A DNA stretch of 29,370 nucleotides from a virus (taxonomy: Duplodnaviria > Caudoviricetes): IMG/VR virus record IMGVR_UViG_3300045557_000079, positions 1-29,370 of that record, one strand, 5' to 3'. The number at the start of each line of letters is the position of its first letter. Within the stretch, counting starts at the first letter, position 1. Below the pieces are notes generated by a model. The model worked only from the letters and a program-made list of their open reading frames with translations. It searched no databases and had not been told where the DNA came from. The position numbers were made by a program, and so were the translations under genes. Positions 20,138 to 23,216 of this stretch are shown here, one piece after another.

Positions 20138-20452
20138 TTAGTCTTCCAGATAAGCCGCGTATCTAGCGTATTCGTAGCCTTCGCTTTCAATCAGAATGCC
20201 GCTTCCCCTCCCCTGCTCCTTCACAAGGATGCAGTGGCGGATGCCGCTTTTATCCACCCGCATCAACTCCATATTTTCCTTGATGAAATCCTGATCGGCA
20301 AAGAGGTCACCCGCAAAGCTTTCAAATTCAGCCCTGCCAAGTTCAATGGTTTTTTCAATCACAAACCAGCTTCTTTGTTTTGCGGCTTTATCCCAGCGGA
20401 TGAGTTCTTCGATATGGCCGGGCTTTCTTATAAAGGCAGCGTTTTTCATCAT
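20138..20452 (-). CDS. DUF6329-like protein
   Basis: 'FIRKP', 'IEKTIEL', 'DFIKENMELM..D..G.RHCILV', 'GILIESEGYEYARYAA'. Confidence 0.65.
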   Translation of the reverse strand: MMKNAAFIRKPGHIEELIRWDKAAKQRSWFVIEKTIELGRAEFESFAGDLFADQDFIKENMELMRVDKSGIRHCILVKEQGRGSGILIESEGYEYARYAAYLED

Positions 20453-20673
20453 TTTTCTTCCACCTTTCTGTAGTGGTCAATCCCATAAACAAGGCCAAGG
20501 GAGGATCCTTTTTCCCAGGAAACAAAGATGGTTCCGGTATCGTCGATGCCGGTGACTGTTCCCTGATCTCCCGAGAGCAGCGCCGTGTACGGGTCATTCA
20601 TGGACAGGAGCTCTACTCGCGTTCCCGCTGGATATCGTTTCCTTAGGCCCTCTAGGGCAGTTGATGTAATCAT
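20449..20673 (-). CDS. DUF4314-like small protein
   Basis: 'RYPAGTRVELLSMNDPY..L..GDQGTV..IDDTGTI.VSW..GSSLGL..G.D'. Start ATG 20673 (SD AAGGAG). Confidence 0.85.
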   Translation of the reverse strand: MITSTALEGLRKRYPAGTRVELLSMNDPYTALLSGDQGTVTGIDDTGTIFVSWEKGSSLGLVYGIDHYRKVEEK

Positions 20674-20704
20674 GCGGTTTTCTCCTTCTGCTTTTCGTAC
20701 TACC

Positions 20705-20733
20705 ATGTACCCTCTAAAGCCTTAAAAAGTCAA
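20705..20733 (-). promoter_or_regulatory. putative internal promoter for DUF4314-DUF6329
   Basis: Minus strand TTGACT followed by a poor -10 (GTACAT/TACATG) in the gap after the methylase stop. Confidence 0.35.
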
Positions 20734-20739
20734 GAGAAT

Positions 20740-21933
20740 TCAGTCCACTAGCTCCGCCTTTTCCCCGGTGAGTTCTTCCCACCTTCGAATGATGACGTCG
20801 CAGTATTTTGGATCAAGTTCCATCATAAAGCATCTTCTTCCGGTCTTCTCCGCAGCAATTAGGGTGGTCCCGGATCCGCCAAAAAGGTCTAAGATATTGC
20901 TCCCAGGCCCAGAGCTGTTTTTGATCGCACGGGCCACAAGCTCAATAGGTTTCATGGTGGGATGCTCATCGCTCTTTGACGGCCGATCAAAATCCCAGAC
21001 ATCGCTTTGCTTACGATCCTGCAGAGGGAAGTTTCTTGGCGCCCCATCTTTCCAGCCGTACCAAATGGGTTCGTACTTGGTATGATAGTCTTTCCGGGAT
21101 AATACCAGCCGGTCCTTATTCCAGATGATCGTTGAAGACCAGTGGTAATCATTATCCGATAAGGCAAGCATGACGTTCCCCCATTCCTGGGCCGACATCA
21201 CTACATAGGTCATAGCCCCAGGCTCAGACGCCTTGCTCATGCAGGAGAAAGCCTGCTCCATAAACTCCCTGAAATCCTCCGTGTCCATAGAGTCATTCAT
21301 GATTGTCCTGGGCTTATACCCTTGGGCATTCTTTTCTTCCACCGCGCCGTAATTCACATTCCAGGGCGGATCGGTAAAGACCATGCAGGCCAGCTCTCCC
21401 CCCATCAGTTTCTCCACATCTTCCCGCTTGGTGCTGTCTCCGCAAAGGAGCTTATGATTTCCAAGCTTCCAAGTCTGTCCGAGCTTCGTAAAGGGCTCAT
21501 ACCCGTCTCCTTCAATTTCAGCAATGGCCTCGTCTGCATCAAAGTCATCTTCGGTAATCTCCCCCATCCTCTCAAATCCAAAAGGGAGCATATCAAAGTC
21601 AAATGCCTCAAGACCCGCAAGCTCGACTGCTAAAAGATCCATATCCCACTCTGCAAACTCGGCGGTCTTGTTATCTGCAAGCCGGTAAGCCTTTACCTGT
21701 TCTTCACTCAGATCTGCTGCAAAAAGCACAGGCACTTCCTTCAGGCCTAGCTTTTCTGCAGCTTTGAGTCTGGTATGGCCTACGATAATAACGCCGTCCT
21801 TATCTGCGACAATGGGCTGCTGAAAGCCAAATTCCGCAAGGCTGGCCGCTACTTTCTCCACCGCTTTTTCATTGATTCTTGGGTTGTTTTCGTATGGTTT
21901 TAGCTTGGAAATGGCTGTATTTTCAACCTTCAT
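20740..21933 (-). CDS. ParB/Srx N-terminal domain fused to N4/N6 DNA methyltransferase
   Basis: 'LKPYENNPR', 'FGFQQPIV', 'GHTRLKAA', 'RLADNK'; MTase motifs 'FTDPPW', 'HPTMKP', 'DLFGGSGTT', 'ELDPKYCDVI'. Confidence 0.92.
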   Translation of the reverse strand: MKVENTAISKLKPYENNPRINEKAVEKVAASLAEFGFQQPIVADKDGVIIVGHTRLKAAEKLGLKEVPVLFAADLSEEQVKAYRLADNKTAEFAEWDMDLLAVELAGLEAFDFDMLPFGFERMGEITEDDFDADEAIAEIEGDGYEPFTKLGQTWKLGNHKLLCGDSTKREDVEKLMGGELACMVFTDPPWNVNYGAVEEKNAQGYKPRTIMNDSMDTEDFREFMEQAFSCMSKASEPGAMTYVVMSAQEWGNVMLALSDNDYHWSSTIIWNKDRLVLSRKDYHTKYEPIWYGWKDGAPRNFPLQDRKQSDVWDFDRPSKSDEHPTMKPIELVARAIKNSSGPGSNILDLFGGSGTTLIAAEKTGRRCFMMELDPKYCDVIIRRWEELTGEKAELVD

Positions 21934-21959
21934 GGTATTTCCCCCTTTTTCTAAAAATG

Positions 21960-22030
21960 CCGCGTAGTCGGAAGAGCAAACCCCCGCCAGTCATTTTTCG
22001 TTGAAATTCCAACGTTTTATAGGGGGGGTA
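21960..22030 (-). other. putative cos (packaging) region
   Basis: Between HNH and the packaging genes. Minus strand C7 run, short inverted repeat (CGTTG..CAACG, 21999-22014), then ACTGGCGGGGG (21991-21981), a layout typical of HNH-assisted cos phages. Confidence 0.55.
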
Positions 22031-22051
22031 TGATTTTTCTATCCGTTTATC

Positions 22052-22080
22052 TTGATATTTTTTCGTAAATGCTGTACAAT
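22052..22080 (+). promoter_or_regulatory. sigmaA promoter for RNA unit 1
   Basis: TTGATA(22052)-17 nt-TACAAT(22075). Confidence 0.75.
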
Positions 22081-22087
22081 TATATTT

Positions 22088-22198
22088 GAACCAATTATGG
22101 GCAATTGGAGCCTATGGCTCCTCTCCCAGTATGCGGTTCCGACATCATCCACATTGTTGACCAATTGGAGGTCAGGAATCACTGAGATGGTGTTTTTT
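22088..22198 (+). ncRNA. putative structured small RNA, unit 1 (~110 nt)
   Basis: Starts ~7 nt after the -10. Two nested-stem domains, ends in a stem + T6, no SD-led ORF. Confidence 0.6.
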
Positions 22199-22200
22199 AT

Positions 22201-22229
22201 TTGACAGCTTTAAACGGCTGTGATATATT
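22201..22229 (+). promoter_or_regulatory. strong sigmaA promoter for RNA unit 2
   Basis: Consensus TTGACA(22201)-17 nt-TATATT(22224) with extended -10 TG at 22221. Confidence 0.8.
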
Positions 22230-22235
22230 TGCATC

Positions 22236-22315
22236 AGATAAGGCGCCCCCTAACTTGAAAACCCACATTTTGCTTATGTAAATTGGTCGGGATGATTGGG
22301 GGGTCTTGTTTTTTT
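22236..22315 (+). ncRNA. putative structured small RNA, unit 2 (~80 nt)
   Basis: 5' AGATAAGGCGCCCCCTAA pairs with 3' TTGGGGGGTCTTGTTT to form one long irregular hairpin ending in T7. Confidence 0.6.
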
Positions 22316-22583
22316 ATTGTCCTCGTTTCATAACCCTTTGGCATCTCAAGCTCTTCGTTCCCTTCTCAGGATGAGCCTTGGCATGGCAGGCAGCGCAAAG
22401 ACTCTCAAGATTGCTGCTGATATAGCCAAGCTCCGGATATTCTTCAACCGGCTTGATATGATGGACGATGGTGGCCTCTGTGATTCGTCCATATTTCTTG
22501 CACTCGACGCACCGGTAGTTATCCCGGGCCAGGATTGCCGCACGTTTCTTTCTCCACCTGGTGCTTTTATATATATCAGCCAT
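22314..22583 (-). CDS. HNH endonuclease (terminase-associated, HK97 gp74-like)
   Basis: 'RDNYRCVEC', 'ATIVHHIKP', 'NLESLCAACHAKAH'; upstream of cos/terminase. Confidence 0.92.
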   Translation of the reverse strand: MADIYKSTRWRKKRAAILARDNYRCVECKKYGRITEATIVHHIKPVEEYPELGYISSNLESLCAACHAKAHPEKGTKSLRCQRVMKRGQ

Positions 22584-22719: not shown

Positions 22720-22744
22720 AAAAAACCGCCATTTCTGACGGTCT
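22720..22744 (-). terminator. terminator-like hairpin in the late leader
   Basis: Minus strand GACCGTCA-GAAA-TGGCGGTT-TTTT. Confidence 0.65.
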
Positions 22745-22847: not shown

Positions 22848-23216
22848 TCAGATTAAAAGCAGTTTTTCCGCCAAGTGCCTGATTATCTTCGCTTTCCACC
22901 GGACGAAGGTGACCCGGTGAGCGTAGTCCGGATAGGGCGTGCGCTTAACGATGTTGTCCCTGATTGCTTGCCGGTATTCTTCCGGCACCCTGCCAAAGGC
23001 CTCATCCACTGCATTGAGTTTCATGGACATTAAGGCACGCTGAACGGCCGCCCGCTCCGTTGGGTTTCCCGGGCTATTCGCCCGGGGCATTCCAGTAAGA
23101 GCAGATTGATTCCCACATATCAGGCTCTCGTACTCCTCCCTGGCTCTGTCATAATCCCTTATGATTAAAATGCACTCCCGCCAGATTTCTTCCGGTATGG
23201 CGCTTACTCTTCCCAT
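22848..23216 (-). CDS. late transcriptional activator (RinA/ArpU-like)
   Basis: Last early gene; 'IIRDY', 'GMPRANSPGNPTERAA', 'AVDEAF..VPEEYRQ', C-terminal HTH-like 'RVTFVRWK'. Confidence 0.7.
   Translation of the reverse strand: MGRVSAIPEEIWRECILIIRDYDRAREEYESLICGNQSALTGMPRANSPGNPTERAAVQRALMSMKLNAVDEAFGRVPEEYRQAIRDNIVKRTPYPDYAHRVTFVRWKAKIIRHLAEKLLLI

Follow-up and report, generated by a model that had tools for sequence, protein, structure and literature searches.

Candidate orphan antitoxin-like hairpin RNAs beside the putative cos site of a temperate phage, with relatives nested antisense behind predicted RNase domains of polyvalent proteins

The cassette at positions 22052 to 22315 of the viral DNA analysed here (IMG/VR record IMGVR_UViG_3300045557_000079, 29,370 nucleotides, hereafter the window) can be read, with a probability that we put at roughly 0.55, as a set of captured orphan hairpin-RNA genes acting as antitoxins or decoys towards RNases that rival elements bring in. 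Sequence comparison places the home of the hairpin family in an antisense promoter-hairpin-terminator unit that is written in codons directly behind the MuF_C domains of polyvalent proteins.

The window carries a small temperate tailed phage, annotated with an integrase, a repressor, replication genes, an HNH endonuclease, a ParB-methyltransferase, terminase, an HK97-type portal, protease, capsid, tail and endolysin genes, and was classified as a provirus with a completeness of 82%. A Clostridia host is suggested by the closest genome match of the ParB-methyltransferase (87%), which comes from an Anaerovoracaceae MAG (L340); BLASTN of the window against annotated phages gave nothing beyond short chance matches. 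The cassette is an accessory insert between a cos-like site and the HNH gene. Its left flank is a conserved stretch without assigned strand (21941..22039, with a run of seven G at 22022-22028) that is kept at 88% identity over 99 nt in the related phage L001 and is recognisable in L340, and it is from this 99-nt conservation that we infer a putative cos position and role. The right flank is the HNH endonuclease gene, of the cos-associated type (22314..22583, minus strand; PHROG 144, E 4.6e-25), which converges on the second RNA of the cassette, its stop codon overlapping the second U-tract. The packaging module starts with the ParB-methyltransferase gene (20740..21933, minus strand; PHROG 498, E 1.9e-146), which served as the anchor for finding relatives. 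Elsewhere in the window, genes for DUF6329 and DUF4314 proteins (20138-20706) lie between the ParB-methyltransferase and the small terminase, and a terminator-like hairpin (22723-22744, minus strand), similar in L001 and L340, stands between a late-activator-like gene (22848-23216) and the HNH gene. At the contig end (1-3853) lie a gene for a DUF4391 protein and one for an SNF2-type helicase of 1077 aa; both probably belong to the host or to a defence island next to the prophage.

A first-pass annotation of this DNA had reported two near-consensus promoters, each followed by a fold and a U-tract, and our scans bear these positions out. Promoter 1 (22052..22080, plus strand) is a sigmaA-like TTGATA-17-TACAAT site scoring 10/12, with a promoter in the same slot of L001, and promoter 2 (22201..22229, plus strand; TTGACA-17-TATATT) has an extended -10 TG and scores 11/12; only five sites of at least 10/12, these two among them, occur on both strands of the 29-kb window. 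RNA1 (22086-22202) folds at -43.9 kcal/mol (z -4.67), a value reached by none of 200 shuffles, and RNA2 (22235-22320) at -26.3 kcal/mol, with a modest z of -2.08 that was reached by six of 200 shuffles; the reverse strands fold less well (z -2.38 and -0.55, respectively). The U-tracts start at 22193 and 22309, and neither terminator was listed by a simple terminator scan because both are long closed hairpins. No protein gene follows either RNA, as had been claimed, the convergent HNH gene being found there instead, and promoter 2 begins 2-3 nt past U-tract 1, in agreement with the earlier picture of stacked modules.

RNA1 itself, which had been described as a single unit, is made of two hairpin modules, each with an AAUUGGA loop. 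Hairpin 1 (22088..22139, plus strand), whose family core GGGC-AATTGGA-GCCT spans 22099-22113 with the loop at 22103-22109, has an exact 16-nt match to an embedded MuF_C hairpin, whereas hairpin 2 (22141..22198, plus strand; loop AATTGGA at 22163-22169, U-tract at 22193-22198) is marked by compensatory pairs with respect to hairpin D of L001, the copy in the chromosome G110 and the embedded copies, and has a G.G mismatch beneath the apical stem; we read both as orphan MuF_C-type modules. RNA2 (22235..22315, plus strand) is a single long closed hairpin ending in a U-tract (22309-22315). The design of promoter, long closed hairpin and U-tract by which we judged family membership is present in the window units, and it is on this shared architecture that RNA2 is provisionally placed with the others; the 7-nt loop of the AAUUGGA type on an apical stem is present in hairpins 1 and 2 but not in RNA2. 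Two short motifs had been proposed as common to both RNAs. AATTGG does mark the family loops at 22103 and 22163, but its copy at 22281 lies outside such a loop, and the hexamer occurs nine times on the plus strand of the window; CCACATT lies within stems, is not kept in L001 and is probably a chance coincidence.

On the minus strand a vestigial open frame (22039..22182), read as a captured coding linker and not taken as a gene, encodes IPDLQLVNN at hairpin 2 and RLQLP at hairpin 1 within one stop-free frame, to be compared with IPGLQLPDN and RLQLP behind MuF_C. Both units are stop-free in the linker-peptide register of the promoter, a property reached by 401 (RNA1 unit) and 916 (RNA2) of 5000 shuffles, and the reverse strand of RNA2 has 37 stop-free codons in that register; these stop-free registers give modest support to a capture from coding DNA. 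Searching Rfam with the window returned no match at gathering score and four unrelated, chance-level matches at E<=10, and ARAGORN found no tRNA in it. Several other identities were considered and set aside: the 35-codon plus-strand ORF in RNA1 has no SD sequence; the overlapping minus-strand ORFs (20-47 aa), considered with a type I toxin-antitoxin system in mind, are not hydrophobic by inspection; the GGA that a CsrA sponge would display is not conserved in L001 hairpin D and others; and mimicry of a tRNA anticodon, for which the loop lacks the U33 register, remains speculation.

Variation of unit number in the HNH-cos interval, which the first-pass annotation had put forward as a check together with covariation among homologues, is indeed observed. 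In L340 the cos-like stretch continues directly into the HNH gene end, leaving an empty site with no hairpin, against three hairpins in the window and four, with one promoter, in the same slot of L001 (ParB-methyltransferase 84% identical). Compensatory stem changes are found as well: the alignment of hairpin 2 with hairpin D of L001 is gap-free, and 7 of 20 pairs are changed on both sides among the three sequences formed by hairpin 2, L001-D and L001-C. Hairpins B and C of L001 lie at L001:3600-3865, C keeping the lower stem of hairpin 2 with a different loop. A model built from those three sequences (R1) gave matches in two of 151 family genomes, the one in G110 being real and the other lying inside a coding gene. 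The G110 locus (L445:1320-2120, corresponding to about 50300-51100 of G110:C13) is a chromosomal array of four stacked promoter-hairpin-U-tract units between feoB and the gene for a 249-aa HExxH protein without Pfam match; one unit has the AAUUGGA loop on a different stem, a repeat of ~50 nt is present twice, and one unit only is assignable to the family. Less specific searches were dominated by noise: loose DNA patterns run on viral contigs gave 23, at least 120, 116 and 9 matches judged to be chance, only L001's own contig being real in the set of 116, family-level BLASTN over 301 genomes gave nine weak matches, and a pattern search of 401 genomes gave 22 matches, one of them real, with a similar count in the control.

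The home of the family was reached with a 25-nt search pattern built from hairpin 2, L001 hairpin D and the G110 copy, which retrieved 13 matches from metagenomes at 12 loci (about nine distinct, four near-identical). Every match forms a stem of 6 bp, a feature not demanded by the pattern, and a promoter match accompanies 11 of the 13; for one of these 11, on a truncated contig, the promoter site is shifted. The strand opposite the hairpin core encodes IPG[VL]Q[FL]P[ND]N, and in L479, L484 and L490 this peptide comes directly after a Pfam MuF_C domain; the hairpin units of L480, L481, L486 and L488 lie between ordinary genes. At L490:230-700, in a conjugative-element setting, a stack of at least four near-repeated promoter-hairpin units stands between the MuF_C domain and an ArdC N-terminal domain that comes after it.

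MuF_C domains selected by HMM, and not chosen by loop, amounted to 16 matches in 14 of 200 scored Clostridia genomes, a set from which G506 was left out here and in the LPD3 and PBECR searches. Behind every one of them, at a distance of 60-142 nt, there is an antisense TTGAC[AT]-17 promoter; a U-run is present in 15 of the 16 units, and the family loop in 11, the remaining five having other loops. Tiling 11 of these genes gave the background for this promoter: it occurred in 12 of 261 tiles on the sense strand and in 23 of 261 on the antisense strand, where the units themselves are counted too. When each unit was recoded 100 times with synonymous codons, so that the protein stayed the same, 14 of the 16 native sequences folded better than 97 or more of the recodings, the exceptions being L494 and the broken L502. 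Codon usage in the 11 units with the peptide motif is equally constrained, Gln being CAA in 10 of 10 cases (background 39%) and Leu being TTG in 10 of 10 (background 15%); the codon listing held 17 copies, and the six extra ones, picked by loop pattern, were excluded from these counts. Covariation of the apical stem is seen among the 17 embedded copies, with 16 double changes, a level reached by none of 500 shuffles, and again in a nine-row set that includes hairpin 2; sequence relatedness can inflate such counts. The same hairpin stands behind MuF_C in the giant gene vb_24B_48 of the E. coli Stx phage 24B (L536:776-852), where its promoter is weaker, and in an Acinetobacter element (L537:779-855); 187 phage records match the MuF_C domain. 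The study of 24B_1 reportedly concerned another region of this phage. Taken together, these comparisons indicate that stem and loop are conserved at the RNA level. They also correct the expectation, drawn earlier from type III systems, of an RNA in front of a toxin gene, the homologues being instead nested antisense inside the gene.

According to Iyer et al. 2017 (PMC5512222), MuF-C is a predicted RNase of the PBECR group that phages and mobile or conjugative elements deliver, and as many as 26% of polyvalent proteins contain PBECR domains. Our own inspection agrees with this classification of MuF_C, the PBECR-site His and Ser/Thr being visible in 12 of 12 aligned domains. A structure model of the domain (pLDDT 83) retrieved ten matches at Z>=5, all of them BECR-fold toxins at middling values of only 5-6, the best being BrnT (Z 6.0, rmsd 3.2, 75 aligned), CdiA-NC101 (5.8), RelE (5.8) and colicin D (5.3). 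Foldseek with the same model returned no match at E<=0.001, and the MuF_C profile nothing significant among PDB sequences.

The hairpins of the window are taken to be orphans because no MuF_C, LPD3 or PBECR3 domain was found in the phage; the search, made for these three domain families, covered the window at its 82% completeness, the L001 record (95%) and G110, and gave no match. Their divergence from the embedded copies is considerable. A model built from the embedded copies only scores the G110 copy at 49.5 bits, and its best match in the window is hairpin 1, a weak one (20.1 bits, E 0.22); hairpin 2 is not listed, and it is linked to the family through the 25-nt pattern, L001-D and the G110 copy. 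The minimum-energy fold of hairpin 1 differs from the family fold (-23.0 versus -12.6) and buries part of the loop, so that this module could be decaying. Hairpin 2 has stem pairs changed on both sides and a broken peptide motif, with the loop retained. For RNA2 no convincing homologue or partner emerged, a DNA pattern giving eight chance matches in viral contigs and another search 0 of 251; a likeness to LPD3-type hairpins seen by eye was not supported by the scores. A search of the presumed host genome, G001, found no cognate target.

Nested units are not restricted to MuF_C. An antisense unit follows 9 of 10 LPD3 matches and all four PBECR3 matches located inside long frames, and none of the 13 solo or C-terminal PBECR2/3/4 domains. 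Over 11 whole genes (64 kb), promoter-like sites number 24 on the antisense and 5 on the sense strand, and we read 19 of the 24 antisense sites as driving closed hairpins. Within a single 3268-aa protein, units are found behind MuF_C, LPD3 and PBECR3 and none behind LPD23 or the peptidase, and in another protein one unit follows each of two MuF_C domains and none the ART domain. Just behind six of eight solo or C-terminal PBECR2/3 genes (L552, L553, L559, L560, L561 and L562) lies the Rfam skipping-rope RNA, and the drum RNA is in front of the PBECR4 gene at L549, one of four PBECR4 loci scanned; from this placement both would be candidate PBECR antitoxin RNAs. They had been tied to nearby proteins with no function assigned, and judged to be biochemically demanding (Weinberg 2017, PMC5737381).

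The cassette would then be an array of promoter-to-U-tract modules captured from behind MuF_C/PBECR-type domains and driven by promoters that we suppose to be constitutive. In the home gene each RNA would neutralise its own domain, the 7-nt loop on its stem acting as a substrate mimic, and the orphan RNAs would bind such RNases whenever a rival phage or conjugative element delivers them. The orphan copies would in this manner extend immunity to the lysogen, or to the phage early in infection, the latter being proposed because the insert would sit at the presumed first-ejected end. That the RNA has a fixed loop on a covarying stem, is present once per predicted RNase domain and persists in orphans lacking that domain points above all to an antitoxin or decoy that would bind a protein. 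Yet the home position is also perfectly antisense to the mRNA, and antisense regulation, in which the RNAs would base-pair with the mRNA of the polyvalent protein, leading to its cleavage or stalling behind each RNase domain, and the orphans would silence the gene of incoming rivals, deserves consideration even if we regard it as unlikely. Such superinfection exclusion has a precedent in STnc6030, an RNA of 500-786 nt from the Salmonella prophage BTP1 that is antisense to an injection-protein gene, blocks superinfection and is sequence-specific to its own phage; the passages of that report used here mention neither a family of repeated hairpins nor orphan copies (PMC7067206). Hairpin 1 would allow antisense action: it has an uninterrupted 14-16 nt in common with several embedded copies, giving duplexes down to -55 kcal/mol, and its loop could seed pairing. 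Hairpin 2 argues for structure over base pairing, since its longest uninterrupted match to any of the 17 embedded copies is 9 nt and its two-sided stem changes lower complementarity, to duplexes of -27 to -39 kcal/mol against a cognate-pair median of -144. Besides, a cis-antisense RNA needs no fixed loop, yet the loop here is shared by Clostridia and by elements of E. coli and Acinetobacter; the units track RNase-like domains only; and with the target lying behind the domain, a cut mRNA would still encode the RNase.

The one-to-one pairing of RNA type with domain and the strong conservation of the loop could also mean that the hairpin serves the PBECR domain as a cofactor, guide or favoured substrate, activating or programming it; the orphans would then act on a nuclease from a helper element or the host, or jam a host defence nuclease of the same fold, the latter being the anti-defence idea of the first-pass annotation. 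The judgement of skipping-rope and drum as biochemically demanding and tied to nearby proteins (PMC5737381) fits that idea too, which we nonetheless consider rather improbable, given that no variable guide segment is evident and that orphan copies in genomes whose search yielded no such domain are easier to reconcile with immunity than with activation. More prosaically, the predicted misfolding of hairpin 1, the weak scores of the embedded-copy model, the overlap of U-tract 2 with the HNH stop codon and the persistence of vestigial open frames could mean that the insert is a neutral leftover of decaying promoter-terminator scraps, or an insulator blocking early-gene read-through into the packaging module. 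Compensatory changes within the orphans themselves make this improbable, as do the different arrays held in the same slot by two related phages, the independent orphan arrays in the G110 chromosome (four units) and in L490, and the precision of a capture that runs from promoter to U-tract and leaves the domain out. The antitoxin or decoy reading can be widened into a proposition that we hold tentatively and would not quite back at even odds: each RNase domain of polyvalent proteins would be guarded by a nested antisense, in-frame RNA antitoxin, toxin and antidote shuffling together as a module, orphan arrays in unrelated phages and chromosomes would represent an RNA-encoded acquired immunity, and skipping-rope and drum would be intergenic members of the class.

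Stand-alone phage RNAs without a partner protein, such as pseudo-ToxI, Racr and rAcrVIA1, are thought to act by mimicry and counter host ToxN or Cas proteins, and rAcrIIA1 is reportedly a further orphan mimic of this kind. The window RNAs are likewise orphan phage small RNAs; they differ in stemming apparently from effector genes of other mobile elements and in being stacked modules, and no Rfam CRISPR-DR match was found in the window. Orphan immunity-gene arrays, captured without the toxin and stacked, are also familiar from polymorphic toxin systems, where, unlike here, the units encode proteins. By analogy, the closest working example for the antitoxin reading is RCd22, which neutralises AbiF in trans through direct binding and needs its stems to do so (PMC12373285). 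AbiF/RCd22 and ToxIN share with our units the order promoter-structured RNA-terminator, repeated hairpin motifs and an RNA tied to an RNase toxin (PMC12373285); their toxins are HEPN/AbiF or ToxN, whereas the partner domain here has a predicted BECR fold, and their RNA is upstream on the same strand, whereas ours is nested antisense in the coding sequence behind the domain. The type III antitoxin models of Rfam (ToxI, CptI, TenpI, abiF) have no match in the window, and the position where such systems carry a same-strand toxin gene downstream is occupied by the convergent HNH gene. The first-pass proposal of orphan antitoxin-like or decoy RNAs is supported in part: variable unit number, stem covariation and the tie of the homologues to predicted RNase domains speak for it, and it is abandoned as regards ToxN, AbiF/HEPN or reverse transcriptase as partners, the partners of the homologues being MuF_C/PBECR-type domains. 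Its anti-defence role would, since those domains belong to polyvalent proteins, more probably be a protection against rival mobile elements than against host defence.

Skipping-rope (RF02924) and drum (RF02958) resemble the window RNAs in being conserved, in having 3' terminators and in lying near protein genes (PMC5737381), but they are intergenic and of different structure, and the window RNAs match neither model. In the literature covered, in which subscription papers are thinly represented, we found no account of nested hairpin RNAs following MuF_C/PBECR domains, nor of their orphan arrays. The word 'antisense' is absent from the main text of PMC5512222, and the portions of that paper covered here describe no associated RNA or self-protection; no such description occurs either in the portions covered of PMC10910872, PMC11806420, a 2026 BECR preprint and a 2026 ncRNA-mining preprint. 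If the proposition is true, a nested RNA antitoxin per domain would explain the free shuffling of PBECR domains, a BECR-fold branch would be added to the RNA-antitoxin systems, and skipping-rope and drum would gain a suggested function; in the orphan arrays one would have a new currency in mobile-element conflict and a read-out of the effectors that a phage meets. A domain of 150 aa and an RNA of 70 nt would suffice to put the hypothesis to the test. In L515, L517, L519 and L525, segments without Pfam match are followed by additional antisense promoter-hairpin units, which may mark unrecognised nuclease domains.
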